Translations under genes and position numbers: made by a program
The notes under the pieces: model-generated
Seen by the model: only the letters and a program-made list of their open reading frames with translations
Databases searched by the model: none
What the model was told of the DNA's origin: nothing
Assembly: GCA_963752915.1 (NCBI GenBank)
Contig: CAVVZZ010000002.1
Coordinates: 129,092 to 193,091, forward strand
Direction: 5' to 3'
DNA: 64,000 bases
Source of the DNA: Ignavibacteriota bacterium
Lineage (GTDB): Bacteria; Bacteroidota; Ignavibacteria; UBA10030; UBA6906
In this document: piece after piece, positions 7,259 through 55,405 of the stretch
Numbering within the stretch: position 1 is the stretch's first letter
How the letters are laid out: the number at the start of each line of letters is the position of its first letter

Positions 7259-9557
7259 CTATGGCTGAAGGACGAGCGCTGCATAGAGCTGGCCCAGCGA
7301 GATCCCTCCGTCATTCGGAGGCACGCGTTGATGCCAGTACGGTCGGAATCCATGGTCTCGGAGCATTGTGACCGAGAGCGTCGTCAGTAGGGCATTTTGA
7401 AAGCAGCCGCCGCTGAGGACCACGCGATCGAGGCCAACCTGCTGTGCGACGGCCACGATACCCCGGGCAAGCGCGGAATGAAACCCGTACGCGATCGCTG
7501 CGACCGGCGTTCCCCGCCTGACTGCCTCGAGCATTTGACGAACGCCCGGAATCCAGTCAAGCACGAGCGCCGGAGACGTCTCCGTTTCTTTCTCGGAAAT
7601 TGTTGCCAGGGGCAGGGACAATGTCAACGCCAGAGTCGACCGAAGATGCAAGCCACTCCAATTCCATCGCTGCCTGCCCTTCGAACGAAGCACGCTGACG
7701 GATACCCAGGAGCGAGGCAACGCCATCGAACAGACGGCCGGCGCTTGTGGTCCGCGTCGCATTGATCCTGCGTTCAATCGCCCGGTACACGAGGCGAAGT
7801 TCCTCTTTGCTCCATTCTGCGAAGCACGGAAGTTCTGCAATACCGGGATCATCTCTCCGGAAACATTCGTAGACCATTCCCGAGGCAGAGCGACGAGGCT
7901 CATGCACAGCCGCATCGCCACCTGGAAGAACAAACGGGCGCAGCATCGCTGCTCTCCGGGACCCCTGCGCACCAACCACGAGGAACTCGCCTCCCCAGAT
8001 CGTCCCATCATCCCCCCATCCGGTCCCATCCCAGGCAACCCCGAGGACATCACCCGTCAGGTTGTTCTCGGCCATACATGCGGCAATATGCGCGTGGTGA
8101 TGCTGGATCCTTCTCACCGGCAATCCCATCCCTGCGGCTTCCCCTGTTGAAATGTAGTCAGGATGCTTGTCAGCCACAACAGCACGGGGGACGAGTTGAT
8201 AGAGGCGGACAAAATCCTTGATTGTCGATCGGAACGAGGCAAGCGATTGTTCCGTCTCGAGGTCTCCGAGATGCTGGCTGATGAAAATCGAGTTTCGCCG
8301 GGCGACCGCGACCGTATTCTTCAAATGTCCCCCAACGGCAATCGCGTCTGGCAGCGGTTCTCCAACGCTGACAGGCAACGGGGCATATCCCCTTGAGCGC
8401 CGGAGCACCAGATCTCTGTCGAGCAATACCCGAACTACGGAATCATCGACATACCGGACGATAGGGCGGTTATGGACCAGGAACAGGTCCGCGATGCCGG
8501 CGAGCCGGACGAGTGCTTCACGCTCGTCGGTGCAAATCGGTTCATCCGTGAGGTTCCCGCTGGTCGCGACAACGGGACGGGCCACCTTCTTGAGGAGAAG
8601 GTGGTGAAGCGGAGTATACGGGAGCATGATGCCGAGGGTGGGATTCCCCGGAGCGACGTTCCCGGCAATGAAAGACAACGGAGCGGCGTCCTCTTTCTTT
8701 TTCAACAACACGATCGGTGATTCCGGGGACCGGAGAAGACGTTCTTCGAGCGGCGACACAACGCACACGCTTCCCGCGGTCCGGATGTCCGGCACCATGA
8801 TCGCAAGCGGTTTCTCTTCACGACGCTTCCGCGCACGCAACGTCGCAACGGCATGCTCGTTGGTTGCGTCAACCATCAAGTGAAAGCCGCCGAGCCCCTT
8901 GAGCGCGACGACCTTTCCAGCAAGCAGCGCATCGCTCGCGGCCTCCAGCGCACGGTCATGGTCGGCGACGATGGATCCGTCGGGATTCCACAACTCCACG
9001 TGAGGTCCGCACGTCGGACAGGCATTCGGTTGGGCATGAAACCTCCGGTCGCCGGGGTCCTCATACTCCTTCCTGCACTCATCGCACATGTGAAATTTGT
9101 CCATCGACGTGTTCGGGCGATCGTAGGGCAGGGACGTAATGATCGTAAATCGCGGTCCGCAATTCGTGCAATTCGTGAACGGGTACCCGAACCGCCGGTT
9201 GGCGGGGTCCATGATTTCGGCGAGACATTCAGGGCATGTCGCTATATCGGGCAGGACAAAGGTCGATACCTCTCCGCTCCCGTCACTCTCGCGGATGGAG
9301 AATGACGAATATCCGGCACCGTCGAGGTAGGAATACTCGAGACTCTGGATGGACGCTCTCGCCGGTTTCTCCGGCTCGATTCTGAGAAGAAAGTGTTCAA
9401 CCTCACGATCTTCCCCTTCCGCGTCAATCACCACGCCGGACGTCGCGTTCATAACCCACCCCGCGAGCCGATGTTCGCCCGCAAGCCGATAGATAAAGGG
9501 ACGAAACCCGACCCCCTGGACGGCGCCACGGATTTCGATATGCACGCGCTTCGGCAT
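7259..9557 (-). CDS. hypF: carbamoyltransferase HypF; reading frame interrupted by an apparent 1-bp frameshift near 7605-7640 (sequencing error or pseudogene)
   Basis: N-terminal acylphosphatase domain, two Zn-finger CxxC pairs, YrdC-like and Kae1-like domains in ORF 7557..9557. The conserved C-terminus (LDWIPG...AAIAYGFH...LSGGCFQN...VPPNDGGISLGQ) is in a different frame (ORF 7259..8053). Confidence 0.8.
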
Positions 9558-9587
9558 AGAGAGGAAGACGTCTGCTGATGGATGTCA

Positions 9588-9612
9588 CCATCATCCGTGT
9601 TCTGGATGATGG
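9588..9612 (-). promoter_or_regulatory. perfect 9-bp inverted repeat hairpin between hoxW and hypF
   Basis: CCATCATCC-N7-GGATGATGG, about 30 nt upstream of the hypF start. No U-tract. Confidence 0.3.
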
Positions 9613-9654
9613 GGCAGAGTAAGGATTTTCTCAGAGAGTTGCCACGGCAGGCGA

Positions 9655-10101
9655 CTAGACCGGCGTCCAGCCGTCCACCAATCGCCGCACGACGGTCACG
9701 CTTTGGTCGATCGCCGCCTGTGTTGCTGCCGACACGCGTTCGGTGAACGAGAAATCTGTCGCAGGAATTCCGACCAGGTAGACGTGTTCAGGGACTGTCC
9801 CGTAGAGGGAGTTGCAGAGAGCGAGGAGCTGGGAGGGAGAGAACAGATGCGAATCAACGGGCGGCACCGGGACGGTATTGCCGATCGACGTACAGACGAG
9901 TTCATCGGTTCCCGCTGCTGCGTCGAGGAAGATGACCAGATGACGATGCGACAGGGACTCGGCGATCTCCGGCTGAATATCATGAACGATGAGAACGTCG
10001 ACCTCCGGGATCGTCTCACGCACGCGTTGCGCAGCGACGACACCGGCGGCATCATCGCCCCGCAATGTATTGCCATAGCCAATCACCAGCGGCGGGATCA
10101 T
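9655..10101 (-). CDS. hoxW: hydrogenase maturation endopeptidase (HoxW/HybD family)
   Basis: [15 protein letters not shown] and later H residue, characteristic of [NiFe]-hydrogenase C-terminal processing proteases. 4-nt overlap with the hoxH end. Confidence 0.8.
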
Positions 10102-11525
10102 CGCACCCGTTCGTCCAACACGTGGTCTGCGCTATCGACCACCCGGACATGGAGCGGCATGCTTCCGATGGCGTGGGTGGAACAGGAAAGACAGGGATCA
10201 AAACACCGGATCCCCGCTTCAATCCGGTTCAGCAGGCCTTCGGTGATTTTTGCCCCGTCCAGGTATTGGATGGCAAGCTGTCGCACCGTGCGGTTCATTG
10301 CCAGATTGTTCTGCGCCGTGGCGATCAGAAGATTGACATGCTGGAGCACGCCGTCCTGATTCACCCAGTACTCGTGGAACAGCGTCCCGCGTGGCGCCTC
10401 GCTCGCCCCGATCCCGTGCTCGCGGTTGATCATGGCGCGCGACCGGACCTTCTTGCCGAGGAGAGCCGGATCATTCAGGAGCTGCTCGACTTTCTCGACT
10501 GCGAACAGGAGCTCGATCAGCCGGGCATAATGGTAGTAGAAGGAGTTGTTCACGACGCCCTCCTCCCCTGCCAGCATTTTGAAACGCTTGCGTTCTTCTT
10601 CCGCGAGGGGGGTTGGGATGTAATCGCAGATGTTCACCCGGGCAAGGGGACCGACCCTGTACATCCCCTTCGGATAGCCCATCGGCTTGTAATACGGGAA
10701 CTTGAGATACGACCACGACTCCGATGCTTCGCCGAAGTGTTGACTGTAGTCGGCGGGATCAATCTTGTCATTGAGGATATTCCCGCCACTGTCGGTGACG
10801 CGGAGTGCTCCGTCGTAGTATTCGAGAGCACCGTCCTTCGCCACGAGACCCATGAACAGTGAACGGAAATTCCCGAAGTTCGGGATGTCCTTTTCGAGTC
10901 GGGTATGGATTTCCTTCAGCCGGTCCAGCGCCAGGAGCGATGTTTCCTTTGCCTCGGGGATCCAGGCGAGCAGCGTGTCGCGTTTCGCCGCTTCAAAGGG
11001 CTCGCGCACTCCCCCGGCGACCGCCCAGGGAGTATGGATTTTCCTGCTCCCGAGAACTTCGATGATTTCCTGTCCGAATTTCCTCAGGCGGATTCCGCGA
11101 CGCGCAAATTCCTTGTCCTTCTCGATCAGGCCGAACACGTTGCGGAGAGCGGGATCGCTATCGAAGCCCAGGAGAAAATCAGGCGACGACAGATGGAAGA
11201 AACTCAGCGCATGGGACTGGATCCACTGTGCAAGGGTAATGATGCGGCGGAGGACCTCCGCCGTTTCGGGGATGCCGACCGCGAGGATTGCATCTCCCGC
11301 TTTCGCGGAGGTAATCAAATGACTTGTGGGACAGATTCCGCAGATCCGCGACGTGATCCCGCCCATCTCCCACATCAGGCGGCCTTCGCAAAACTTCTCA
11401 AAGCCACGGAACTCGTTCACATGAAACCGCGCATCTTCCACCGACCCGTCATCATTCATCCGGATGGTGATCTTTGCATGCCCTTCGATCCGTGTTACGG
11501 GCGCGATGGTGATTGTTCTCGACAT
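10098..11525 (-). CDS. hoxH: [NiFe] hydrogenase large subunit, bidirectional NAD(P)-linked type (HoxH)
   Basis: N-terminal [10 protein letters not shown] and C-terminal [12 protein letters not shown] (Ni-binding Cys pairs plus protease cleavage site). Strong similarity pattern to cyanobacterial HoxH; start at Met38 of the track ORF ([16 protein letters not shown]). Confidence 0.9.
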
Positions 11526-11568
11526 TCGATCCTCGAAAAGTGAACTGAGAAAGCCGCCGCTTCCACGG

Positions 11569-12105
11569 TTATCCGTACCGGAGATACACCGGGGAGAACG
11601 CGGGCATTCTTCCTTCCAGGAGTTCCTGGATGGCAAACCAGATGGTGTCGGCGGTGGGCGGACAGCCGTGAATGAAGGCGTCGACGGTGATGATCTCGTG
11701 GAGCGGGCGCGCGGTTGTCAGAAGCTCGGCGATCGTCGGATAGTCGCGCGGTACCTGCGGCGTCACGTCCGCGAGTTCCACATAGGCACGGTCAAGCACG
11801 ACGTCCCGGTCATAGGCATTCCGGAGCGCAGTGACGTTCCCGGAGACGGCGCAGTCTCCGAAGGAGACGACGAACCGGGAATTGCGCCGGACCTTCCTTG
11901 CCTCCTCCGCATTCTCATTGTTCGTGACCGCACCTTCCACCAACGTCACATCCACATCGCGCGGAAACTCCTTGATGTCCGCAAGCGGGGAGTAGACAAG
12001 GTCGATCTTCCCGGCGAGCTCGATCAGTCGCTCGTCCATGTCGAGAAACGACATATGGCACCCCGAACACCCGCCCAGCCAGACTGTTGCAACTCTCGGT
12101 TTCAT
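11569..12105 (-). CDS. hoxY: [NiFe] hydrogenase small subunit HoxY
   Basis: [17 protein letters not shown] motif of NuoB-like hydrogenase small subunits. Start at the internal Met ([10 protein letters not shown]). Confidence 0.85.
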
Positions 12106-12118
12106 CGGTTCGTGGCTC

Positions 12119-12850
12119 CTATTCGTCTTCATGGATGTTGATCCACTCGCGTTTCAGCCGCGCAGTGACAATGTATTTCAGAAAGTCCGTCTTCTTTTCC
12201 ATCTCTGCGACGTTCTCCCCCTTCGTGATCAGGGCTCCGGTGGGGCAGACGAGGACGCACTTGCCGCATGCCGTGCACGATTCGGACTCACCCCACGGCT
12301 GGTTCATATCGGCAATGATGGTGCAATGGATGCCGCGGTTCGCGATGTCCCACACGTGCGCGCCCTCCACCTCGTGACACACCCTGACGCAACGGTTGCA
12401 CAGGACGCACCGGTTGTGGTCCATGATGAAATCTTTGTGCGTGGCATCAACCGTCTTCCGCGGATACAAGTACGGGACCCGCGTGTGTGTCAGGCCGACC
12501 TCATAGGCCAGGTTCTGCAGCTCGCAGTGGTTGTTCACGATGCACACGGCGCACTGGTGGTTGCCTTCAGAGGCAAGGAACTCGATGATGGTCCGACGGT
12601 GCCGTTGCAGGCGCTCGGTATTGGTCCGGACGACCATCCCTTCCTGCGGCCGTGTTGTGCACGCCGGGAACAGCTTCGGGGATCCTTCGATTTCCACCAG
12701 GCAGAGCCTGCACGCGCCCACATCGGAAAGCCCGTCCAAATGGCAGAGCGTCGGAATCCGGATGCCGTGCTGAGTGGCAATTTCGAGAATGGACTCCTCG
12801 TCGTTCCCGCTGAGCTGTTCGCCATCGATTGTCAGAGTGAGAATTGCCAT
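12119..12850 (-). CDS. hoxU: diaphorase subunit HoxU (2Fe-2S plus 4Fe-4S, NuoG-like)
   Basis: N-terminal 2Fe-2S ferredoxin Cys pattern (CHLDGLSDVGACRLC) followed by CxxCxxC 4Fe-4S motifs. Confidence 0.85.
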   Translation of the reverse strand: MAILTLTIDGEQLSGNDEESILEIATQHGIRIPTLCHLDGLSDVGACRLCLVEIEGSPKLFPACTTRPQEGMVVRTNTERLQRHRRTIIEFLASEGNHQCAVCIVNNHCELQNLAYEVGLTHTRVPYLYPRKTVDATHKDFIMDHNRCVLCNRCVRVCHEVEGAHVWDIANRGIHCTIIADMNQPWGESESCTACGKCVLVCPTGALITKGENVAEMEKKTDFLKYIVTARLKREWINIHEDE

Positions 12851-12861
12851 GAGCGTCCCTG

Positions 12862-14511
12862 TTATGCGTGCTGTATTCCGGAATCCTTGCCGGACGGGAC
12901 GAACCCTTCCGACGGGATCAGGAGCTTTTCATATTCATGACGGAAAAACCGCAACGTGGATAGCACGGGGTTGGGAGCCGCCTGTCCGAGGCCGCAAAGA
13001 CTGGTCTCTTTTACCATCGTGCAGAGTTCCTCCAGCAGCGCGAGATCCTCTTTTGTCCCCTTTCCCGCGCTGATTTTGTCAAGCAGTTTGAAGATGTGGA
13101 CGGTCCCGACCCTGCACGGGATGCATTTCCCGCACGACTCATCCATGCAAAAGTCCATAAAGTATTTCGCGACGTCGACCATTCCCGACGTTGAATCCAT
13201 GACAATCATGCCGCCGCTTCCCATTATGGAGCCCACCGTCGCGAGCGATTCATAATCCACGGGGAGATCGAGATGTTCCCGGGGGATGCAACCACCGGAC
13301 GGACCTCCCGTCTGGGCGGCTTTGAATTCCGTCCCTTCCGGTGTCCCTCCGCCGATATCGAAGATGATCTTCCGCAGCGGGATGCCCATCGGGACTTCGA
13401 TGAGGCCGGTATTCCGGATGTTTCCTGCAAGCGCGAAGACTTTTGTGCCCGTGCTCTTCGGCGTCCCGATGGAGGAGAACCAGGCGCTCCCCTTCCTGAT
13501 GATCGGCGCGACGTTCGCGTAGGTCTCAACATTGTTGATGAGGGTTGGCTTGCCCCAGAGGCCGCGTTCGGATGGATACGGAGGCCGGGGACGCGGACGT
13601 CCGCGCTTGCCTTCGATCGACCTGAGCAATGCGGTCTCTTCGCCGCAGACAAATGCGCCTGCGCCGATGCGAAGATCGATCCGGAAGTTGAATTGCGATT
13701 CGAAGATCCTGTTGCCGAGAAGGCCGAGACGCTCCGCCTGTTTGATCGCCAGCCGGAGCCGGTCGATCGCCAGCGGATATTCCGCGCGCACATAGATGTA
13801 TCCCTGATTCGCGCCCACCGCGTATCCGGCGATCGCCATTCCTTCAAGAACACGATGCGGGTCCCCTTCGAGAACCGATCGGTCCATGAATGCGCCGGGA
13901 TCGCCTTCGTCGGCGTTGCACACGGCGTACTTCTGGTCGCCCTTGGCTTTCCGGACAATTCCCCATTTCAATCCGGTCGGATACCCGGCTCCGCCTCTGC
14001 CGCGAAGGCCGCTCTTGCGTACCTCCTCGATGACGTCCGGCGGCTGCATCTCGGTCACGACCTTTGCCAACGCCTCATAGCCGTCTGCAGCGATGTACTC
14101 TTCGATGCTTTCCGCATTGATCTTGCCGCAGTTCTCAAGGACGATCTTGTGCTGCGCCGCAAAGAACGGGGCATTGTTGTCAAGAAGATGATCGTCGATC
14201 TTCTTCCCTCGGACAAGATGGTCTTCGACGATCTTCCTGCCGGTCGCATCGTCGACCCGTTCGTACACGCTCCCGTCAGACGAAACCTTCACCAGGGGAC
14301 CTTCACCGCAAAGGCCCATGCAGCCGGTCCCCAGCACCTCGACCTCTTTTTCGAGGCCGTGTTCTGTCAACGCCTTCTTGATGGCGTCGCGGGCGGCGAG
14401 ACTGCCGCAGGAAACACATCCGGCGGCGGCGCAATAGAGTATGCGATCGCGAAACTTCTTTTGACGATTGCGCTCTTCCTCTGCAAGCTCACGCAGGTCT
14501 TCGACGGTCAT
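12862..14511 (-). CDS. hoxF: diaphorase flavoprotein subunit HoxF (NuoF-like, NAD(P)H/FMN-binding)
   Basis: [20 protein letters not shown] site, CGKCxPCR 4Fe-4S, N-terminal thioredoxin-like 2Fe-2S segment. ATGA overlap with the hoxE stop. Confidence 0.9.
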
Positions 14512-15065
14512 GCTGCCACCTCCGCTGGCTGTTCCTGCCATTTCTTGATCCGGTCGACTGCACTGTCAGCAGTCAGCTTTCCCGCGACGTTATTGTCGAC
14601 CACCGCAACCGGGGCAAGCCCGCACGACCCTACACAGCGGGCGGACATCAGCGATACCTTGTTGTCGGCGGTCGTCTCTCCGAGTTTACAGTTGCAGTAC
14701 TGTTCCACGGCTCTCTGAATCGCCTCCGCGCCTTTCACGTGGCATGCCGTCCCCGTGCAAAGCACAAATGTGTGCTCGCCCTTGGGCTTGAGCGCGAAAA
14801 AGTGATAGAACGTCGCCACCCCGTACACCCGGCTCAGGGGGAGTTTCAATGATCGGGCGACATAGATCAGGAGATCGTTTTCGAGGAATCCGAAAATCCC
14901 CTGCGCTGCATGGAGGACTTCGATCAGCGCGTCACCGCTGTTATGATGTTTCGTGATGGCGCGATCGAGCAGCTTGAATCGATTATCGCCGCTGGGATGC
15001 TGTAAAGGAGTATTCAATGGAGTGTTCGAATTGATGAGAGATCCGGTAACAGTTGCCGGGTGCAA
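14508..15065 (-). CDS. hoxE: diaphorase subunit HoxE (NuoE-like 2Fe-2S); start codon uncertain (TTG at 15065 or downstream)
   Basis: [12 protein letters not shown]...LIEVLH...[10 protein letters not shown]...CVGSCGLAP, matching the NuoE/HoxE family including the cyanobacterial-type N-terminal extension. Confidence 0.8.
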
Positions 15066-33843: not shown

Positions 33844-33945
33844 ATGAGACTCAGCAAGGAACAACGGATCGCCGTCGTCGTCGCCGTTTTCGCGCTCGCG
33901 CTGATTTTGCTTGTCACCGTGTTCAGAAACGGCACGTCCTGGTAA
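33844..33945 (+). CDS. candidate small membrane peptide (33 aa, below the ORF-track size cutoff)
   Basis: GGAG then ATG 4 nt after the PGI/PMI stop. MRLSKEQRIAVVVAVFALALILLVTVFRNGTSW contains one TM helix. GC-rich third positions. Confidence 0.3.
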   Translation: MRLSKEQRIAVVVAVFALALILLVTVFRNGTSW

Positions 33946-34055: not shown

Positions 34056-36893
34056 GTGCAGGAGAATGTGAGCATGAAGTCCAGGACTCTGACCCTTCTT
34101 GTGCTGCTCCTGATCCCCGCGGCGGCATTTCCCCAGTTTTACTTCTTCGGGCGGAACAAAGTCCAGTACACGGACTTTGAGTGGCATGTCCTGAAGACGA
34201 AGCACTTCGACATCTACTACTATCCCGAAATGAAGGACCTTGCCGAATACGGCGCGTCCTTCGCCGAGGACAGCTATACCATCCTCGAGCAGAAATTCAA
34301 TCACTCCGTCAATTCCCGCATCCCGCTGATCTTCTACAGCTCCCACCTTCACTTTGAACAGACGAACACGACGGCCGGATTTATTCCGGAGGGCGTCGGA
34401 GGGTTCTTCGAGTTCCTCAAGGGGAGGGTCGTGATCCCCGCTGACGGGTCGATTGCGCAATTCCGGCATGTGATCCGTCACGAACTTGTGCACGTCTTTA
34501 CCACCAGCAAGATTTACCGCGTCCTTTCCGAGCACAGGAAGGCTAGCGACCGCTTCCCACCCTTGTGGTTCACCGAAGGCCTTGCGGAGTATTGGTCGTC
34601 GGACTGGGACGCCCAGGGGGAGATGGTGATGCGCGATGCCGTCCTTAACGGGACGGTCGCCGGCCTTGACGATATGGATCGGATCTACGGGTCCTTCCAG
34701 ATGTACAAGGAAGGACAGAACGCGCTGCAGTTCCTCTCCGAGCGGTTCGGAGAAGAGAAAATCCTGGGCCTCATGGAGAACTTCTGGAAGGAAAGTTCCT
34801 TCAGCGATGATTTCAAAATCACCATCGGGAAGGACTATAAGGAGTTCGATGAGGAATGGCTGTATTCCCTGCGCAAGAAGTACTATCCCCTGCTCGCCAA
34901 CGAGGACGTCCCGAGCCGCGCTTCCCGGGCGATCGCGAAGGAAGGGTTCAATTCGAAGCCTGTCGTCATGGAAATGGATTCGCTCCGCGAGGTGCTCTTC
35001 ATCGCAAACAGGACCGGCTACACCGGGATCTACGAGAAGAGCCTCTCGTCGAAGAACCCGGACGATGACGGCACGCAGATCATTGAGGGGGAACGAAGCG
35101 ATGAATTCGAATCGTTCCATCTTCTCCGCGGCAGGATTGACGTCACATCGACAGGAGTCCTCGCCTTTACGACGAAGTCCGGGGAGAACGATGTCCTCTA
35201 TCTGTACGATGTGCGGGAGGAAAAGGTCCTGCAGTCGTTCCGATGGCCCGACGTGGTCAGCATAGGATCGGTATCGTGGGCGCCGGACGGCAAGCGCCTG
35301 GCATTCTCGGCAATCGACAAGGGAGGAAAGAGCGACCTCTATATTCTGAACACCGCGAACGGCGACACTACTCGACTGACCAACGACTTCTACGACGATC
35401 GCGATCCTGCCTGGTCACCCGACGGCAACGTCATCGCCTTCAGCTCCGATCGGACGCCGGACGGCATTCGCGGTGCGTATAATCTCTTTCTGTACACGAT
35501 CGCAACCGGCTCCATCGACTACCTGACGTACGGCCCTTCCAGTGATGCATCCCCGGCCTGGTCGAAGGATGGTGCGCTCCTGGCGTTCACGTCCGACCTC
35601 GGCGGAGTGCAGAACGTCTGGGCGATCGATATGCGGCAGGATCTCGCGCGGCCGATGCGGACAATGAAGCAGATCACACGATTTACCACATCCGCTTTCG
35701 ATCCCGCCTGGGACTCGTCGGGCGACCTCGTCTTCTCGACGTTCGAAAAATACAGTTTCCAGATCCGTTCCCTCCGGAACGTCCGGAGTGCATTCGATAC
35801 CATGTCCACATCGCGGACCATCGACCTTGCGTCGCGCGAAGAACCATGGCGGCCAAAACGTATCGCAGGCTTGTCCTCGCTCCAGCGGCTCCGCTATGCC
35901 GGGGAGTACAGTCTCGACGTCGCGCAAAGCGCGATCTCGACGGACCCCGTCTTCGGAACGACGGGCGGCGCCATTCTTTCCCTCAGCGATATTCTCGGGA
36001 ACGAGGAGTACTACTTCCTGCTCTATAATACGGCACAAACACAATCAGAACTGCTTTCAAGCTTCAATGTCGCTATTTCGAGAGTGTCCCTGGGGCAACG
36101 GACAAACTACGCGTACGGAGTCTTCCGTTTTGCGGGACGGCGCTATGATATCACGGACAAAGACGAGTTCTTCTATGAGCGGGTGTTCGGCGGCTACTTC
36201 ACCTTGAGCTATCCTCTGACAAAATTCGAGCGGATCGAGGCGACAACCAGCCTGAGCAACTCTTCAAAACTCGCCGACATTGCGATCGCAGAGAGGAAAG
36301 CGCTCCTCCTGTCCAATTCGTTGTCGTTCGTCCACGACAACACCCTGTGGGGACCCACCGGCCCCCTCGACGGAAGCAGGTTCAATCTGACACTTGCCTT
36401 CACCTCCGATATTCAGTACTCGAATGTGGACTATGTGACCGTCATCGCCGACTACAGGAACTACATCCGGCTGGCGACCAGGAGCGCGTTCGCGACGCGC
36501 CTCTGGCTCTTCTACAATCACGGGAAGGAGTCCCGTCAGTTTGTGATGGGGGGGAGCTGGGACCTCAGAGGGTACCCATTGTGGAGTCTCCACGGCGAGA
36601 AGCTCTGGCTCATCAGCAATGAACTGCGTTTCCCCTTTTTGGACCAGCTTGCCTTCCGGTTTCCTTTTGGCGGCATCGGATTCTGGGGAATCCGTGGTGC
36701 GCTGTTCTTTGATACCGGTGCGGTATGGGACACGGACTACACGCAGACCCTGGGAAGCATGGGCGGCGGCGTCCGGCTGAACCTCGGAGGCCTTCTGGTG
36801 CTCAGGTTCGACGTCGGTAAGCGCATCGAGAACAACTTCACGACGATCGAACACGACTGGTTTACGCAGTTCTTTTTCGGGTGGGACTTTTGA
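34056..36893 (+). CDS. signal peptide + peptidase-MA-like (HExxH...EG) domain + TolB-like beta-propeller + Omp85-family (bacterial surface antigen) C-terminal beta-barrel ending in Phe
   Basis: HELVHV then FTEGLAEYW about 22 aa later (gluzincin-like). Repeated SPDG/PAWSxDG propeller blades. C-terminal SWDLRGYP, FFDTGAVW, GGGVRLNLGGLLVLRFDVG and terminal ...FFFGWDF typical of Omp85 barrels. Confidence 0.75.
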   Translation: MQENVSMKSRTLTLLVLLLIPAAAFPQFYFFGRNKVQYTDFEWHVLKTKHFDIYYYPEMKDLAEYGASFAEDSYTILEQKFNHSVNSRIPLIFYSSHLHFEQTNTTAGFIPEGVGGFFEFLKGRVVIPADGSIAQFRHVIRHELVHVFTTSKIYRVLSEHRKASDRFPPLWFTEGLAEYWSSDWDAQGEMVMRDAVLNGTVAGLDDMDRIYGSFQMYKEGQNALQFLSERFGEEKILGLMENFWKESSFSDDFKITIGKDYKEFDEEWLYSLRKKYYPLLANEDVPSRASRAIAKEGFNSKPVVMEMDSLREVLFIANRTGYTGIYEKSLSSKNPDDDGTQIIEGERSDEFESFHLLRGRIDVTSTGVLAFTTKSGENDVLYLYDVREEKVLQSFRWPDVVSIGSVSWAPDGKRLAFSAIDKGGKSDLYILNTANGDTTRLTNDFYDDRDPAWSPDGNVIAFSSDRTPDGIRGAYNLFLYTIATGSIDYLTYGPSSDASPAWSKDGALLAFTSDLGGVQNVWAIDMRQDLARPMRTMKQITRFTTSAFDPAWDSSGDLVFSTFEKYSFQIRSLRNVRSAFDTMSTSRTIDLASREEPWRPKRIAGLSSLQRLRYAGEYSLDVAQSAISTDPVFGTTGGAILSLSDILGNEEYYFLLYNTAQTQSELLSSFNVAISRVSLGQRTNYAYGVFRFAGRRYDITDKDEFFYERVFGGYFTLSYPLTKFERIEATTSLSNSSKLADIAIAERKALLLSNSLSFVHDNTLWGPTGPLDGSRFNLTLAFTSDIQYSNVDYVTVIADYRNYIRLATRSAFATRLWLFYNHGKESRQFVMGGSWDLRGYPLWSLHGEKLWLISNELRFPFLDQLAFRFPFGGIGFWGIRGALFFDTGAVWDTDYTQTLGSMGGGVRLNLGGLLVLRFDVGKRIENNFTTIEHDWFTQFFFGWDF

Positions 36894-36894
36894 A

Positions 36895-38061
36895 ATGCAT
36901 CATTTTTCTGCATACCGCCTACTCCTTACTGCCTACACCCTGCCGTGTTTGCTTCTGATCGGCTGCGGTGGATTGCGCATTGAGCGGACCATCATCGTTC
37001 GTCCGGGAGACATCCTGTGCTACGGCGGAAACGATGCACGTACTGCCGATTATCCGGCACCGATCGCAGATTCACTCGTCGAAAACTGGGAGAAGGACCT
37101 GTCCGCAGGGACAGGAAGCGGATCACCTTTAGTGCTCGACAGCATGGTCGTCGGAGGGACGCTGCGTGGCGACCTTTACGCCATCAACATCCGAACGGGG
37201 AAGATGATCGGGTCGGTCAAGCTCAACGATGCCGTTCCCGGATCGCCGGTCATCGACGGGAACGTCATCGTCCTTCCGATGAGCGGCGGTAACGTATCGA
37301 TCGCGGCATACAATCTCAACGACGGTCGAACAGTCTGGCGCAAGACCTATGATGATGTGGAGATGTCTCCGCTATTGATTAAAAAGCGGGTCTACTTCGG
37401 CACGATCGCGGGAACCGTCTACTGTGTTGAGCGTATATCGGGAGATCCGGTATGGAAGTTCGAGCTTCCGGAGAACCGGCGGTTCAACGGATTCCACTCC
37501 CTCCCCTCGGCAAACGATTCCCTGTTGTACTTTGGCTGTGACGACGGTGATCTCTACGCGCTGAAGATCTCAAACGGCTCGCTATGCTGGAAATCCCCGA
37601 CGGACGGGCCGATCGGCGGCGGTACTGCCATTGCGGCCGGGAGTGTGATTGCGACGACGATCTCCGGAAGCCTCTACGCATTCGACCCGGAGACGGGAAA
37701 GATCCGGTGGAAGCGTTCGACAGGAGCTCCGATCTACTCCCCACCGGCAGTGCGTGGTGACACGGTGGTTGTCGGCGGGATCGACGGCTACGTGCGAGCG
37801 TTCGACGCGACAAACGGCACAGAGTTCTGGAGGACGAATCTCGACGGCCCGGTGAATGCGGGCGCTGCAATCGCGGGGGGAAAAGTCTTCATCGGGACAT
37901 TGAAAAAGAAATTCTTCGGTCTGCGACTCTCAGACGGCGGCATCGTATTCGCCAAAGAGCTGGATGGGAGGATCAAGTCTCCCGCAGTGGTCGGGTATGA
38001 CAAAGTCCTCGTGACCACCGATGAGTTCACGCTCTTTTGCTTCGGGAGGGCGCGGCAATGA
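36895..38061 (+). CDS. PQQ-like beta-propeller lipoprotein (BamB-like)
   Basis: LLIGCGG lipobox-like signal. Repeated GxLYAxxxxxGKxxWK PQQ-propeller blades. Start 2 nt after the preceding stop. Confidence 0.75.
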   Translation: MHHFSAYRLLLTAYTLPCLLLIGCGGLRIERTIIVRPGDILCYGGNDARTADYPAPIADSLVENWEKDLSAGTGSGSPLVLDSMVVGGTLRGDLYAINIRTGKMIGSVKLNDAVPGSPVIDGNVIVLPMSGGNVSIAAYNLNDGRTVWRKTYDDVEMSPLLIKKRVYFGTIAGTVYCVERISGDPVWKFELPENRRFNGFHSLPSANDSLLYFGCDDGDLYALKISNGSLCWKSPTDGPIGGGTAIAAGSVIATTISGSLYAFDPETGKIRWKRSTGAPIYSPPAVRGDTVVVGGIDGYVRAFDATNGTEFWRTNLDGPVNAGAAIAGGKVFIGTLKKKFFGLRLSDGGIVFAKELDGRIKSPAVVGYDKVLVTTDEFTLFCFGRARQ

Positions 38062-38840
38062 AGGTCCTATCGCTCAGCATCGCGATGGTGATCGTGAGTT
38101 CTCTGGCCGGGGCGGGGACGATGGGCCCCGATTCTTCTCGGGCCGGTGTGACCGTCCGAACCCCGGGCGACAGTGCCTTCGTGGTCATCGATTCAATTCT
38201 GACGGGCTACGCGCCATTCACGGTCGATACTCTTCTGCCGGGCAGGCATGTGGTGCGTCTGCTGGCACTTCCTGTCACACGGTGGTCAGCGCGCCCGATC
38301 GCGGATACCTTCGACATATCGGCGGGAGAACACCGGAATCTTGCGTACGACCTTCCGCTTACGGTCAGGGTGTCCTCCATGCCCTCGGGGGCAACGGCCT
38401 GGCTCGGCAAATCCCTTTTGGGCGTCACCCCCTTCCTGATGCCGTCTGGAAGTCTGTATCCCGGCGACTCACTTGTTCTCAAGGCGGAGGGATACGAACA
38501 GTCTGCGGTGATTACTCCGGACACACTCGGGCGTGACATCATGGTACCCATGAACCGGTCATGGCAAGCCCAACCGCAGCAGTCCGAATTCCCAGGACTT
38601 GAAAAGAACGGGGATCGGCCGCCTTTTCACCTGATTGGGCCCATTGCGGGGACGGTCATTGCCGGAACCATCGCCGCCTACTGCAAGATCCACGCGGACA
38701 ATGTGAACGATCAGTACCTGACAACCGGAGATGGCGCGCTTCTGCGGGAGGTGCGGCACTACGACGTGATCTCCGCAATTACGCTGGTGGTTGCTGAAAC
38801 AGGGATGGCACTGCTCGCCTATTACCTCCTCAGCCCGTGA
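38058..38840 (+). CDS. PEGA-domain protein with N-terminal signal and C-terminal membrane anchor
   Basis: Two PEGA-like beta-sandwich segments (VxIDSxLxGYAPFxVDxLxPGRHVV...; VSSMPSGATAWLGKSLLGVTPF...PGDSLVLKAEGYE). ATGA overlap with the previous gene (start at the internal Met of track ORF 38037..38840). Confidence 0.65.
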   Translation: MKVLSLSIAMVIVSSLAGAGTMGPDSSRAGVTVRTPGDSAFVVIDSILTGYAPFTVDTLLPGRHVVRLLALPVTRWSARPIADTFDISAGEHRNLAYDLPLTVRVSSMPSGATAWLGKSLLGVTPFLMPSGSLYPGDSLVLKAEGYEQSAVITPDTLGRDIMVPMNRSWQAQPQQSEFPGLEKNGDRPPFHLIGPIAGTVIAGTIAAYCKIHADNVNDQYLTTGDGALLREVRHYDVISAITLVVAETGMALLAYYLLSP

Positions 38841-38868: not shown

Positions 38869-38897
38869 TTGACTTTGTAGAATACACCCCCTATATT
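38869..38897 (+). promoter_or_regulatory. sigma70-type promoter TTGACT-N17-TATATT upstream of the crp/fnr-family regulator
   Basis: Exact 17-nt spacer, about 46 nt before ATG 38944. Confidence 0.5.
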
Positions 38898-38943: not shown

Positions 38944-39654
38944 ATGACTGACGGCATACTCCCTGCGACCGTAAAGGAGGACGTTGAATTTCTCAAGAAC
39001 GTCCCTATCCTCAGCGACCTAGAGTCGGTTGATCTTGAGACAATTGCCAGGGTCGGGATGAGGAAAAAGTACAAGAAGGGAAGCATCATCCTTCTTGAAG
39101 AGGAGGCGGGCGCCGCGCTTTTTGTGATTGTGACCGGCAAGGTCAAGATTGTGAGGATGGATGATGACGGGCGGGAGGTGATCCTGTCGATCCTTGGAGA
39201 GAGCGACTTCTTCGGTGAAATGGCCATTCTGGACGGCCTCGCACGTTCCGCGAGCGTAGTCGCCATCACGAAGTCCGAACTCTTCATGATCCACCGGAGG
39301 GATTTTCTCAAGCTGCTTCACGATTTTCCATCGGTGGCTATTGCCCTCCTCAAGGAACTGACCAACCGCCTGCGCAAGGCAGATGCGCAGATCAAGAGCT
39401 TATCGTTAAAGGACGCTTCCGGTCGCGTTGCCAACGTGGTGCTCCAGCTGGCGGATGAGATCGGCCGGATCCGCAAGGGCCGGGTGGAGATTGATGAGCT
39501 TCCCCTTCAGCAGGATCTTGCCAACATGGCGGGGACTTCCCGCGAGACGATTTCGAGAATGATTCATGCCTTCATCAAAGAAGGTCATCTCGACATCGAA
39601 CGCGGCAAGCTCATCATTAACGACTACGAAAAATTTAAGACGCGCTATCTCTGA
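38944..39654 (+). CDS. Crp/Fnr-family transcriptional regulator (cNMP-binding plus HTH)
   Basis: cNMP-binding beta-roll (GESDFFGEMAILDG...RSASVVA) and C-terminal HTH (RETISRMIHAFIKEG). Confidence 0.85.
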   Translation: MTDGILPATVKEDVEFLKNVPILSDLESVDLETIARVGMRKKYKKGSIILLEEEAGAALFVIVTGKVKIVRMDDDGREVILSILGESDFFGEMAILDGLARSASVVAITKSELFMIHRRDFLKLLHDFPSVAIALLKELTNRLRKADAQIKSLSLKDASGRVANVVLQLADEIGRIRKGRVEIDELPLQQDLANMAGTSRETISRMIHAFIKEGHLDIERGKLIINDYEKFKTRYL

Positions 39655-40518: not shown

Positions 40519-41039
40519 TCAGAACTTCCTTCATAACAGGAACACGACTCGTGCGCACAATTCAGGGAGTGCTCTCGGCCGGAGGATTACGCTTCGGCAT
40601 CGTAGTCAGCAGATTCAACATGCTGGTGACAGAGCGGTTGCTTGATGGAGCCGTCGACTGCCTGCTTCGCCATGGCGCGACGGAGGATTCCCTGACGACG
40701 GTCTATTGTCCCGGCGCATTCGAGATCCCCCAGGTCGCCAACCTGATGGCTCGCAGCGGGAAGTTCGATGCCATACTTTGCCTGGGGTGTGTGATCCGCG
40801 GCGAGACTCCGCATTTCGATTACATTGCGGCGGAGGTTGCAAAAGGGATCGGCCAGATTGCATTGACCACATCGGTCCCGACGGCTTTCGGCGTCTTGAC
40901 AACAGAGACCCTGGAGCAGGCTCTGGAACGCGCGGGGGCAAAGGCCGGAAACAAAGGGTGGGATGCGGCGATGACGGCGATTGAACTGGTACAACTCGGT
41001 CGCCAACTTCAGGGAGGGCCTGCTGAAAAGCGGTCGTGA
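40515..41039 (+). CDS. ribH: 6,7-dimethyl-8-ribityllumazine synthase
   Basis: [33 protein letters not shown] motifs. GTGA overlap with PHP (start codon could alternatively be slightly downstream). Confidence 0.85.
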
Positions 41040-41073
41040 TCATCAGGCCATGGAGAGAGGATATCGAGGTCAT

Positions 41074-43347
41074 ATGAAAGCAGGGTGGTGGGTGTTGGCG
41101 GGTGTGATGTGCGCCGTTTCGTGCTCGTCTCCGGCACAGGGAGTCGGCACATGGCGGAATTTTACCTCGATGAAAAATGTGACCTCCGTCGCCCGTGCCG
41201 GTTCTGACTTCTGGGCGTCAACTTCCGGCGGACTCTTTCGCTGGTCTCCCGGAAACAACTCCTTCCTGCGCATCACCAGCGCCGACGGCCTGCAAAGCGT
41301 CGTGCTTACCGCAGTCGCCGTGGACTCCGACGGCAATGTCTGGAGCGGGTCCAGCAACGGCTTTCTCCACGTCTATCAGCCTTCAACGGGTTCCCTTCGC
41401 GTCATCTCCGATCTCGCCAATACCAACCAGGTCACCAAGCAAATCAATCAATTGACGGTATACGGAGATACGGTTGTCGTCTGTACCGAATTCGGGCTGA
41501 GTTTCTTCCGGCGTTCCAAGTTTGAGTTCGGCGATACCTTTTCCCGGTTCGGGTCCATACCGACCGGAACACGTGTCGCGGCAATCAATGCCGTTATCTC
41601 CAACGGCCGTGTCTGGGTCGGCATCACCGATCACCAGACCCTGAATCGGATCGCGTCGGCACCGCTCGACGGATCGAACCTGCTCGTCCCGGACGCCTGG
41701 ACGCTCGATGTCCCTGGATCGGGAGCGGGAAATCCGGCCGCCCTTGCAGCATTCAATGGCAACGTCTATGCAGGGACGTCTGACGGACTGTATGTGCATA
41801 CGACATCCGGATGGAGCGCGATCTCTTCCTTTAGCGGTCAATCCATCACCGCTCTCACGGTATCTGGAGGACAACTGCTTGTCGGAACCACCGGGAGTCA
41901 ACTGTTCTCAGTTGCCTCGGATGGGTCCTCGGCGGCCTTTGGACCAGCGCTTCCATACCCCCCCGCAGCCCTTGAGTCCGGATCGGGGACGACGCCGAAC
42001 CCTGTCGTGGGAACTTCGGGCGGGGGGATCTACTCCTACGGGACGTCAGTTTGGACGGCTCACCTCCCGAACGGCCCGAACTCAAACGAGTTTACCAGTG
42101 TCGTCGTGGATCCGAACGGAATCGTCTGGGGAGCCACAGGACCCAATCACGGTACCGGCATCAACCGGTTTGACGGGTCGACGTGGATGGCGTTCACGAA
42201 ATCCAACAGCGTGCTCCCCGAAGATCAATACTACAAAATCTCCGTATCGTGCAACGGCTCCGTCTGGGCGAGCTCATGGGGATGGGGAATGGCGGAGTTT
42301 CCCGGCGGGGGGACAACCATTGATTCTTCCCATATCTTCAATGCGAATGTGGGGATGGTGGGCATTTCGGGTCACACCGACTACATCGTCGGAAGCAACG
42401 TTGTCTGCGATGAAAATGGGAATACGTGGGTGTCGATCTACGGAGCCCTGGACAAGAATATCCTTGCCGTGCGGACGCCGAACGGAGTCTGGCACCATCT
42501 CCCGATTTTCTACGGCGGCGTGAAGATCAGCAACCTCGTGGAATATGCCGTGGACCGGGTCCTGGCCGTCGATGGGCTCGACAATCTGTGGGCGGTCTCG
42601 CGCGACCCCGCGTACCGCGGCGTCCTCTGCCTGCAGAATGGCGGGGTGCTGGATAGCACTTCGAACATCCTTCTGACCAGCACCAGCGGGCTCCCAAGTG
42701 ATGCGGTCACGACGGTGGTTGTGGACCAGGATAATACGGTATGGATCGGTACCGATCGCGGCATTGCAATCGTCCTCGATCCTTCGAACCCGAGCTCGTC
42801 GATTGCAGCATACAAGCCGCTTCTCGGAGAAAGCATCAATACCATTGCCATTGATCCGTTGAACCAGAAGTGGGTTGGAACTCCGGAAGGGGTGGTCGTG
42901 CTCTCTCCCGACGGCACGCAAGTCCTGACGTCCTACACCGTGGAAACGACGCAAGGAAAGCTGATCGACAACAACATTCAAAGCATTGCCGTCGACCCAA
43001 AAACCGGCGCGGTCTATTTCGCTTCGCTCTCTGGACTGGCGAGCCTGTTTACCACGGGAGCCGCTCCTGCGCAGTCCGACGCAGGTTTCAAGATTTATCC
43101 GAATCCTTTCCGCCTACCGCCGACATCGTCGTTGACCATCGACGGTCTTTTGGCGAATTCAAAGATCAAGATCCTGGCGACCAACGGAAACCTCATTCGG
43201 GACCTCACGACGGACGGGGGAAGGATCGGTTCGTGGGACGGTCGGGACAATCAGGGGAATTACGTGGCTTCGGGCGTGTATTTCATTATCGGGTATACCG
43301 ATGATGGGAACACCGTGCGGGGCAAAGTGGCGGTATTGCGGCGATAG
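41074..43347 (+). CDS. secreted beta-propeller repeat protein (two-component-regulator-propeller-like) with T9SS C-terminal sorting domain
   Basis: Signal peptide MKAGWWVLAGVMCAVSCSSPAQG. Many GxxxGG[LI] propeller repeats. C-terminal KIYPNPF...WDGRDNQGNYVASGVYFI...KVAVLR (Por_Secre_tail-like). Confidence 0.7.
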   Translation: MKAGWWVLAGVMCAVSCSSPAQGVGTWRNFTSMKNVTSVARAGSDFWASTSGGLFRWSPGNNSFLRITSADGLQSVVLTAVAVDSDGNVWSGSSNGFLHVYQPSTGSLRVISDLANTNQVTKQINQLTVYGDTVVVCTEFGLSFFRRSKFEFGDTFSRFGSIPTGTRVAAINAVISNGRVWVGITDHQTLNRIASAPLDGSNLLVPDAWTLDVPGSGAGNPAALAAFNGNVYAGTSDGLYVHTTSGWSAISSFSGQSITALTVSGGQLLVGTTGSQLFSVASDGSSAAFGPALPYPPAALESGSGTTPNPVVGTSGGGIYSYGTSVWTAHLPNGPNSNEFTSVVVDPNGIVWGATGPNHGTGINRFDGSTWMAFTKSNSVLPEDQYYKISVSCNGSVWASSWGWGMAEFPGGGTTIDSSHIFNANVGMVGISGHTDYIVGSNVVCDENGNTWVSIYGALDKNILAVRTPNGVWHHLPIFYGGVKISNLVEYAVDRVLAVDGLDNLWAVSRDPAYRGVLCLQNGGVLDSTSNILLTSTSGLPSDAVTTVVVDQDNTVWIGTDRGIAIVLDPSNPSSSIAAYKPLLGESINTIAIDPLNQKWVGTPEGVVVLSPDGTQVLTSYTVETTQGKLIDNNIQSIAVDPKTGAVYFASLSGLASLFTTGAAPAQSDAGFKIYPNPFRLPPTSSLTIDGLLANSKIKILATNGNLIRDLTTDGGRIGSWDGRDNQGNYVASGVYFIIGYTDDGNTVRGKVAVLRR

Positions 43348-54061: not shown

Positions 54062-55405
54062 ATGCCGATCATGCCTCTCCTCCCGCGGTTCATTCTGATC
54101 ACGCTGTTCCTCCTTGTTCTCGGCGGGACCGTTGCGGCATGGTCCCAGGCGTCCCGGCAGAGCAGCGATGCTCCCCTCGGTATTATTGACACGGTGATCG
54201 TCGGCGGAAACACCAAAACGCATGCGTATGTCATCCTTGATGAAATGACGCTGCACAAGGGCGACACGGCGACGTTCAATGCCATGGAGTATGACAAGAA
54301 CCGCATTTACGGGCTGGGGCTGTTCACGCGCGTGGATATCGCCTACGATTCCCTCCAGGGGACGCGGTTCCTGTTCGTTGACGTCAATGAACGATGGTAT
54401 CTGATCCCGTACCCCATCTTCGGCTTTCGTGACGGCGACGTCAAGCGGCCGTTCGGCGGGGCGGGGTTCCTTCACAATAACGTCGGGGGACGAAACCAAA
54501 AACTCTATACCTCGGTGGTGTTCGGGAGCGATCCGTCCGCGGCGGTGTCGTTCAGCGATCCGCTCATCGACCGTGTCAACCATCTCTATTTCTCCGGGGG
54601 ACTGTCGTTCAGCCGGGTGCGGAACAAGACCGAGGTCGATGTCCAGACGACCGGACCGTTCGACGAATTGCACTACGACATGAACGGAACACTGGGCAAA
54701 CGATTCACGCTCTCACAAACGGCCGGTTTCAATCTCGGATATCATATTATCCACGTCTCCTCCTGGTCGCCGGGGAGGACTGTGTCCAATGATGGAACCG
54801 ACCGTTTCATCTATGCCACCGCCTCCTACGGCTTTGATTCCCGTGATTTGTATGAGTATGCCAGTCGGGGCGACTATCTCGGCGTCAGTTTCACCAAATA
54901 CGGTTTCGGGGAAGGGACGTTCAACATCAGCCGCCTGTTTGCGGACATGCGCGCATATCGCGAACTCCCTCTGGGACTCATCATCGCGTCGCGTCTCTTC
55001 GGGAACCTGACGTGGGGAGGAGAGGTTCCGACGTATGCCCATGTGTTCTTCGGTTACGGAGATCGCCTGCGAGGATGGTTCAATACGGTGATCGAGGGAG
55101 AAGATAACGTGGGGTATACCCTTGAGCTCCGCCGTTACATTTTTCCCCCGACGTATTTTCGGATCGGATTCGTCCCGCTTCCCCAGGAGTTCTCCATCTG
55201 GCGTTTCGGCATCGCCGCCGCCCTGTTCGCCAATACAGGGACCTCATGGTATCGGGGCGACCGGCTGAATTGGAATTCGTTGTACTCCGGCTACGGCGGA
55301 GGACTGCATTTCTTGCTCCCGTACAGCGTCATCATCCGGGTCGAATACGCATGGAACCAGTTCCACCACGGCGAGTTCATTCTCGACCTGCGCGGATCGA
55401 TCTGA
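54062..55405 (+). CDS. Omp85-family outer-membrane beta-barrel protein with a single POTRA-like domain
   Basis: Signal peptide, one POTRA-like segment, barrel motifs (GGGLHFLLPYSVIIRVEYAW) and C-terminal aromatic-rich end. 447 aa, much shorter than BamA. Confidence 0.7.
   Translation: MPIMPLLPRFILITLFLLVLGGTVAAWSQASRQSSDAPLGIIDTVIVGGNTKTHAYVILDEMTLHKGDTATFNAMEYDKNRIYGLGLFTRVDIAYDSLQGTRFLFVDVNERWYLIPYPIFGFRDGDVKRPFGGAGFLHNNVGGRNQKLYTSVVFGSDPSAAVSFSDPLIDRVNHLYFSGGLSFSRVRNKTEVDVQTTGPFDELHYDMNGTLGKRFTLSQTAGFNLGYHIIHVSSWSPGRTVSNDGTDRFIYATASYGFDSRDLYEYASRGDYLGVSFTKYGFGEGTFNISRLFADMRAYRELPLGLIIASRLFGNLTWGGEVPTYAHVFFGYGDRLRGWFNTVIEGEDNVGYTLELRRYIFPPTYFRIGFVPLPQEFSIWRFGIAAALFANTGTSWYRGDRLNWNSLYSGYGGGLHFLLPYSVIIRVEYAWNQFHHGEFILDLRGSI

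Follow-up and report, generated by a model that had tools for sequence, protein, structure and literature searches.

What does a cell do with an outer-membrane barrel that carries a metallopeptidase and a beta-propeller at its other end? This question is raised by a three-gene unit of an Ignavibacteriota bacterium, found in a stretch of 64,000 nucleotides from contig CAVVZZ010000002.1 (assembly GCA_963752915.1) that was analysed as a whole and is here called the window. The first gene (gene 1) encodes a fusion of a putative gluzincin peptidase, a propeller and a barrel of the Omp85 superfamily, gene 2 a propeller lipoprotein that resembles BamB, and gene 3 a protein with a PEGA domain. The established roles of Omp85 proteins are those of insertases (BamA, TamA, Sam50) and of translocators (TpsB, Toc75). 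A first-pass annotation, made from the letters of the DNA, took the fusion for a distinct variant of type Vd secretion and proposed either a self-exporting surface protease or an outer-membrane module for proteolytic quality control. The latter idea is plausible and lies close to the explanation that we favour, to which we give about an even chance of being right: the gene 1 product would be a zinc metallopeptidase on the periplasmic face of the outer membrane, anchored by its barrel, gated by its propeller and in complex with the products of genes 2 and 3, which processes or removes envelope proteins.

The fusion protein starts with a signal peptide; a gluzincin domain, a TolB-type propeller of six blades, a linker of 27 residues and a 16-strand Omp85 barrel follow in this order. 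Domain calls and structure model agree on this, and the Pfam matches together with the model uphold the domain order given by the first-pass annotation. The model was computed with AlphaFold2 from an alignment of 66 sequences that span 30-91% identity and reaches a predicted local distance difference test score (pLDDT) of 88.8 and a predicted template-modelling score (pTM) of 0.88; it supersedes a model from a shallower input of 23 close homologues, which had a pLDDT of 52 and spurious helices in the barrel. A helical domain is modelled at residues ~30-283, the propeller at 285-584 and, after the linker, 16 long strands at 612-937. The signal peptide has the family consensus A-x-A-Q, and the Gln that follows MKSRTLTLLVLLLIPAAAFP is conserved. 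Next to it, residues 21-37 (34134..34184, forward strand) form a strictly conserved motif at the mature N-terminus, Q-x3-F-G-x-N-K-V-Q-Y...W, in which G26, N28, K29 and W37 are invariant over 30-91% identity and for which the model confidence is lower. Its candidate roles are those of a plug, a docking strand or a maturation signal.

The C-terminal barrel, which had been recognized in the translation already, matches the Omp85 family PF01103 with 45.9 bits against a gathering score of 24, and 39 of 51 diverse relatives match the same family at E <= 0.01. Foldseek retrieves BamA barrels with the gene 1 model (5e-10), and a profile of the family's barrel alone reaches BamA sequences at about 1e-5, while the NCBIfam BamA model gives a partial sub-threshold match. 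Two BamA motifs are retained in it. The counterpart of loop 6 (L6) reads GGSWDLRGY in gene 1 and GGSxxLRGY in the family and is aligned to GGSSTVRGF of BamA, and that of strand 13 (beta-13) reads ALFFDTG in gene 1 and RGALFxDAGxxW in the family and is aligned to FFWDMGTVW. The protein thus has the barrel, the PF01103 match and the L6 and strand-13 motifs by which the superfamily is recognized, but it lacks the POTRA domain: profile searches detected none in any of the 51 diverse family members, and the linker of 27 residues leaves no room for one in gene 1. Of the barrel with a preceding POTRA domain that the first-pass annotation had envisaged for structure prediction, only the 16-strand barrel is therefore found, and a canonical BamA was rejected as an identity for gene 1 for want of POTRA domains. 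Subfamilies without POTRA are nevertheless accepted within the Omp85 superfamily (Heinz & Lithgow 2014, PMC4104836). Elsewhere in the window (54062..55405, forward strand) a second Omp85-family gene encodes a product of 447 residues whose single POTRA domain scores 29.6 bits and whose barrel corresponds to positions 324-719 of the BamA model (E 5.6e-14), by appearance a short BamA/TamA-like paralogue; the fusion is therefore not the organism's only Omp85.

The propeller is recognized by PD40 repeats (E 1.5e-20 in gene 1), which occur in 51/51 of the diverse members. TolB is its top structural match (Foldseek, 2.8e-12) and likewise has six blades. In the NCBIfam TolB model TIGR02800, however, gene 1 scores 105 bits against a cut-off of 343, with only the propeller part matching, and an identity as TolB was rejected for this reason. 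Precomputed matches in the gene 1 family further include the Tricorn_N, Tricorn_2nd and DPPIV_N propellers, and Foldseek also matched the tricorn protease 1k32. Gene 1 shares with tricorn the combination of propeller and protease, whereas tricorn belongs to the serine proteases and is cytosolic. NCBIfam also gave a weak match (E 0.1) to a family of PD40-OmpA envelope-integrity proteins.

As the first-pass annotation had pointed out, the N-terminal domain carries the HExxH...EGxA signature of gluzincins, here HELVH followed by WFTEGLAEY, with E168 lying 28 residues after H140, and the signature proves to be invariant in the family. Among the 51 diverse relatives, Peptidase_MA_2 matches 46 at E <= 0.01 (best E 1.3e-15) and Peptidase_M9 matches 12. 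Over the 66 aligned sequences the mean column identity is 36% and only about 27 columns are invariant, and these include H136, E137, H140, W165, E168 and G169, that is HExxH and WFxEG. As these zinc-site residues are invariant while the mean column identity is so low, we conclude that the gluzincin domain is in all probability kept under selection for catalysis. A profile of the N-terminal domain finds in the PDB a Vibrio collagenase (E 0.0066), the M1 glutamyl aminopeptidase 4kx7 (0.0078) and ColG (0.023). In these alignments both motifs are in register, with the M9 collagenases as well as with the M1 aminopeptidase, and WFTEGLAEY falls onto WFDEGTAEFF of ColG. Full-length fold searches are dominated by the propeller and the barrel, so that the assignment of the gluzincin fold rests on sequence. 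The likeness to collagenases (HExxH, the Glu 28 residues on, WFxEGxAE as in ColG), which are secreted and have neither propeller nor barrel, and that to tricorn are at the level of single domains, and for the peptidase the likeness is weak.

This architecture has been seen before. Heinz & Lithgow (2014, Front Microbiol 5:370, PMC4104836) divided the Omp85/TpsB superfamily into ten subfamilies, one of which, the "WD40-like Omp85", has PD40 repeats before PF01103, TolB as closest structure and no POTRA domain. Its members come from Caldithrix, Rhodothermus, Chloroherpeton, Cloacimonas, Sorangium and Myxococcus, that is from the FCB group, Myxococcota and other phyla, and Table S3 of that paper has for this cluster a column "best aminopeptidase hit" with tricorn factor F3, aminopeptidase A and others; 4kxd in that table is the same protein as our match 4kx7. 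Gene 1 shares with this subfamily the propeller before the PF01103 barrel, the missing POTRA and the aminopeptidase-like N-terminus, and nothing structural differs. On the strength of this identical architecture we assign it to the WD40-like Omp85, whose original members include H1XQ58, D0MEQ5 and B3QRX6. The fusion is hence no distinct new variant, as had been supposed at first, and has been catalogued since 2014, and gene 1 is a member of a functionally untested family. The text of the 2014 paper is silent on the peptidase, on how invariant its catalytic site is and on linked PQQ_2 and PEGA genes. In a later paper the WD40-like group is listed among the conserved Omp85 groups and described as not well characterised (Hanson et al. 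2024, PMC11116518).

The two genes that follow gene 1 were identified correctly in the first-pass annotation. Gene 2 gives a PQQ_2 match of E 2.3e-41 and has the lipobox LLIGC, and of 71 orthologues at least 53 have a lipobox too. Its best natural relatives in the PDB are BamB proteins (P. aeruginosa BamB, E 2.9e-24), although designed PQQ-repeat propellers score higher, and with the NCBIfam BamB equivalog TIGR03300 it scores 238.4 bits, which is below the cut-off of 285.2. By these comparisons it is BamB-like, but not demonstrably BamB. The PEGA domain of gene 3 (PF08308, 33.3 bits against a cut-off of 20.8) was found as predicted. A search of the PDB gave no sequence match for gene 3. Its C-terminal hydrophobic anchor is present in 54 of 55 orthologues, and distant loci, too, conserve the C-terminal region.

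Whether these genes belong together was judged on 80 loci from Ignavibacteriota and Kryptonia genomes, in which gene 1 is 55-91% identical. About 13 kb around the module are collinear in this clade, so that synteny inside Ignavibacteriota is by itself uninformative, and linkage rates and distant representatives were compared for that reason. Gene 2 adjoins gene 1 in 65/65 loci and gene 3 is in place in 49/58, as compared with 42/61 for the upstream PGI gene and 37/54 for a Crp gene within 3 kb downstream. An exhaustive search yielded 1,815 clusters of the gene 1 family (50% identity, E <= 1e-30) from several phyla, with full-length members down to 30% identity, and the contigs of 12 distant representatives were inspected. 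In five of them (P0127, P0129, P0137, P0146, P0156; 36-45% identity) a PQQ_2 gene lies directly downstream, each time in unrelated surroundings. A relative of gene 3 follows in four of these five, and its C-terminal anchor makes it recognizable also in cases with a short PEGA part; in the fifth the contig ends inside the following gene. In a rough neighbour-joining tree the partner-bearing members fall into two clades, and the deepest branches are without partners. The three-gene module is real but confined to part of the gene 1 family; a lack of co-conservation elsewhere, which by the first-pass annotation would have refuted its reading, is not observed.

Three of these distant lineages have a fourth co-directional gene after the one in the PEGA position (L086 9626-10900; L087 6435-7595; L088 9862-11127). 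It encodes an NHL/Vgb-lyase-type six-bladed propeller with a lipoprotein-like N-terminus in two of the three cases and a mutual identity of 25-27%; in the clade of the window no equivalent is present at that position.

In the explanation that we favour, the gene 1 product would be exported by the Sec system, its barrel would then be inserted into the outer membrane in dependence on BAM, the machinery for beta-barrel assembly, and the gluzincin and the six-bladed propeller would hang into the periplasm on the short linker. Where Omp85 structures have been solved, the part that precedes strand 1 lies in the periplasm. An acidic run after the lipobox cysteine is known as a surface-export signal in Bacteroidota, and in gene 2 the lipobox is followed by CGGLRI/CSGLRL, without such a run. 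From the position before strand 1, the location of the enzyme in PlpD (see below), the conserved L6 lock motifs, the gene 2 lipobox without acidic run and the C-terminal anchor of gene 3, we infer that the N-terminal domains of gene 1 are probably periplasmic. Propellers gate the access of substrates in the tricorn, prolyl-oligopeptidase and DPP-IV families. By analogy, the propeller of gene 1 most likely recruits substrates or limits access to HExxH, in such a way that only unfolded chains or peptides would be cut. Genes 1-3 would be co-translated here, and their products probably form one envelope complex, to which gene 2 would contribute a periplasm-facing lipoprotein propeller and gene 3 a PEGA protein with C-terminal anchor. 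Most likely, the task of this complex would be to process envelope proteins at the outer membrane or to remove them, in functional analogy to BepA at BAM. Both would be periplasmic zinc metalloproteases stationed at an Omp85 machine to keep outer-membrane proteins under quality control. BepA, an M48 protease with TPR repeats, is soluble and docks on BAM, whereas the M9/M1-like domain of gene 1 is of clan MA and has a covalent link to a barrel of its own; a relationship in sequence was not detected between BepA and gene 1.

The same parts could also serve nutrition, if a periplasmic oligopeptidase tethered to the outer membrane, its gluzincin site gated by the propeller as in tricorn or DPP-IV, trimmed imported peptides for uptake, with the barrel only as anchor and no role in the biogenesis of outer-membrane proteins. 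The Tricorn_N, Tricorn_2nd and DPPIV_N propeller matches would suit such an enzyme, as would the M1 aminopeptidase and tricorn-factor F3 best matches in the supplement of Heinz & Lithgow, and many members of the family are solitary, with metabolic genes of no relation around them. Invariant L6 and beta-13 motifs, however, are more than a simple anchor would require, the partner that recurs is BamB-like and not a transporter, and the sampled loci have no linked genes for peptide transport, and we consider peptide processing unlikely, though a contender to be kept in mind. The protein could also act as a specialised insertase, with the propeller in place of the POTRA scaffold, a barrel that folds some of the outer-membrane proteins and an accessory peptidase. 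Gene 1 resembles BamA in its 16-strand barrel with the L6 and beta-13 motifs, and the adjoining gene for a BamB-like, PQQ-type propeller lipoprotein extends the likeness to the BamA-BamB pair. In E. coli, BamB binds the POTRA domains of BamA, but gene 1 lacks exactly this docking site and gene 2 stays below the BamB equivalog cut-off. The POTRA-bearing second Omp85 encoded in the same window also speaks against an insertase, and the strictest conservation outside the barrel is that of the catalytic zinc-site residues, which argues for proteolysis as a central and not an accessory function. It was Heinz & Lithgow (PMC4104836) themselves who proposed that the WD40-like Omp85 resembles a fusion of BamA and BamB, and according to the same paper Sam50 is functional without its POTRA domain; the paper on the Bacteroidota BAM nowhere mentions BamB. 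Altogether an insertase seems quite unlikely to us.

TolB-type propellers are periplasmic, which counts against the self-exported surface protease of the first-pass annotation, in which the barrel would translocate peptidase and propeller to the surface as in type Vd secretion. The parallel was drawn because PlpD and FplA, too, have an enzyme N-terminal to a 16-strand Omp85 barrel, and the linker of 27 residues would presumably be long enough to span the barrel. The enzyme there is a patatin lipase in place of gluzincin and propeller, and neither gene 1 nor the 51 relatives match patatin (PF01734); PlpD is moreover homodimeric and has one POTRA domain, gene 1 none. The enzyme domain of PlpD, to date the one enzyme-Omp85 fusion that has been tested, is periplasmic and not exported (Hanson et al. 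2024, PMC11116518). The self-export idea therefore loses the support of its prototype, and gene 1 probably has the same periplasmic-enzyme topology. The conserved L6 lock motifs, which plug BamA-type barrels, and the periplasmic appearance of the products of genes 2 and 3 point the same way, and self-export is in our view very improbable. Still further from what we would expect is a tether, in which the propeller would bind a Pal/OmpA-type peptidoglycan-associated protein and the fusion would mainly stabilise the link of the outer membrane to the cell wall, with the peptidase fold being structural. TolB as the closest structure of the propeller and the weak match to the PD40-OmpA family (E 0.1) would fit this, but the invariant catalytic residues argue for an enzyme activity, the TolB equivalog score is 105 against a cut-off of 343 and no Pal/OmpA gene is linked in any sampled locus, which leaves the tether with hardly any probability.

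The quality-control reading thus remains the best available, yet several observations weigh against it. The Peptidase_MA_2 score of gene 1, at 31.9-32.0 bits, lies just below the gathering cut-off of 32.4, and the PDB sequence matches of the peptidase domain are weak (E 0.007-0.07). Seven of the 12 distant representatives (P0121, P0150, P0164, P0170, P0185, P0188, P0194) have no partner neighbours, and the partners are therefore not essential to the family's core function. Where the partners are present, they diverge much faster than gene 1, with same-genome identity ranges over L001-L080 of 27-82% for gene 2 and 23-70% for gene 3 as against 55-91% for gene 1, which would be unusual for obligate subunits. 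The strict retention of the L6 and beta-13 motifs suggests that the barrel may be more than an anchor. Finally, a search of the literature for a characterised member under several names returned no functional study beyond the 2014 catalogue and its citations, in line with the first-pass annotation, which had regarded the module as uncharacterised.

The coordinates of the unit and its parts are collected in Table 1.

Table 1. Features of the three-gene unit and of the region directly downstream, in positions of the window.
Feature	Position	Strand	Remarks
Gene 1, fusion of peptidase, propeller and Omp85 barrel	34074..36893	+	939 aa; open reading frame listed from GTG 34056 (945 aa)
Signal peptide MKSRTLTLLVLLLIPAAAFP	34074..34133	+	hydrophobic segment; Gln after it; cleavage site inferred
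Gluzincin (clan MA) metallopeptidase domain	34161..34922	+	residues ~30-283, mostly helical
HELVH, zinc-binding/catalytic motif	34479..34493	+	H136, E137, H140; invariant in 66 sequences
WFTEGLAEY	34566..34592	+	E168 predicted third zinc ligand; W165, E168, G169 invariant
Propeller, six-bladed, PD40/TolB-type	34926..35825	+	residues 285-584
Linker from propeller to barrel, no POTRA	35826..35906	+	27 residues; from the secondary structure of the model
16-strand Omp85 barrel	35907..36890	+	residues 612-939; C-terminus FFFGWDF
VMGGSWDLRGYPL	36543..36581	+	counterpart of BamA loop-6 (V)RG(F/Y); G826, G827, R832 invariant
RGALFFDTGAVWD	36693..36731	+	counterpart of BamA strand-13 FxDxG; D880 invariant; aligned to BamA RTSFFWDMGTVW
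Gene 2, PQQ_2 (BamB-like) propeller lipoprotein	36895..38061	+	388 aa; lipobox LLIG-C24
Gene 3, signal peptide, PEGA, C-terminal hydrophobic anchor	38058..38840	+	260 aa; PEGA ~38361-38501, anchor ~38760-38834; from PEGA match and hydrophobic segments
Sigma-70-like site TTGACT-17-TATATT	38869-38897	+	upstream of Crp/Fnr gene; 10/12 consensus matches
Crp/Fnr-family regulator	38944..39654	+	cNMP_binding E 1.5e-24, HTH_Crp_2 E 1.5e-13

The list of open reading frames has three co-directional genes and then the Crp/Fnr gene, all where the first-pass annotation had placed them, and a few details at the junctions can be corrected. Its span for gene 1 stands as an open reading frame, but ATG 34074 is the better and likely start, since the homologues are 939-942 residues long and begin with the Met encoded there. 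The TGA of gene 1 ends at 36893 and is separated by 1 nt, and not by the 2 nt given before, from the ATG of gene 2; across the loci this spacing is <= ~20 nt in 51/64, an approximate count as start codons were picked heuristically. The ATGA overlap of genes 2 and 3 reads as annotated, with the TGA at 38059-38061 and the ATG at 38058-38060; the open reading frame of gene 3 is listed as 38037..38840 and has 260 codons for residues from that ATG on. The sigma-70-like site ahead of the regulator likely marks the end of the three-gene unit, but as four such sites were found in the region against 2.5 expected by chance, this is weak evidence.

The Crp/Fnr regulator itself is a neighbour and no more than a candidate member of the module. 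It is far more conserved than the genes around it, with a protein 100% identical to that of L001, a locus at which the identity is 91% for gene 1 and 70% for gene 3. At L085, where the context is unrelated, a Crp/Fnr gene (3543-4223) lies directly upstream of the gene 1 homologue, which could be a hint at regulation or a coincidence. On the other side of the unit, an open reading frame of 33 residues (MRLSKEQRIAVVVAVFALALILLVTVFRNGTSW; 33844..33945, forward strand) has GGAG just upstream and encodes a single hydrophobic helix. It is 42-94% identical in 15 related loci and stays beside PGI even where PGI and gene 1 are apart, and it therefore belongs with PGI and not with the three-gene module. 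Further downstream (40981..43347, forward strand) a gene encodes 788 residues with two-component-regulator propeller repeats, a weak PorZ-like N-terminal propeller match and weak CHU_C/FlgD-Ig matches at the C-terminus, features which suggest a substrate or component of type IX secretion. In most Ignavibacteriota loci this gene and the module are collinear. A hydrogenase-related cluster (7557..14541, reverse strand) with HypF, a [NiFe]-hydrogenase large-subunit-like open reading frame and a NuoF-like flavoprotein is unrelated to the module.

Within the Omp85 superfamily, the subfamilies with enzymes in place of POTRA domains are those about which least is understood, and for one enzyme-bearing subfamily the assumed topology was recently overturned by the PlpD result. 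To the WD40-like Omp85 the present analysis adds that the active site is invariant, that the BamA motifs are kept, that a confident model has no POTRA and that two partner genes recur in at least two clades. A bolder version of the quality-control reading, which we regard as a long shot, is that the BamA-like lateral seam of the barrel might engage stalled or misfolded outer-membrane barrels and feed them to the propeller-gated protease, with genes 2 and 3 providing the coupling to the envelope. If true, this would be an outer-membrane "extract-and-degrade" machine and a new functional class for Omp85 beyond insertion and translocation. In any case, an entry in a catalogue becomes a set of testable hypotheses on proteolysis at the outer membrane's inner face, in phyla with a BAM unlike that of E. 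coli.

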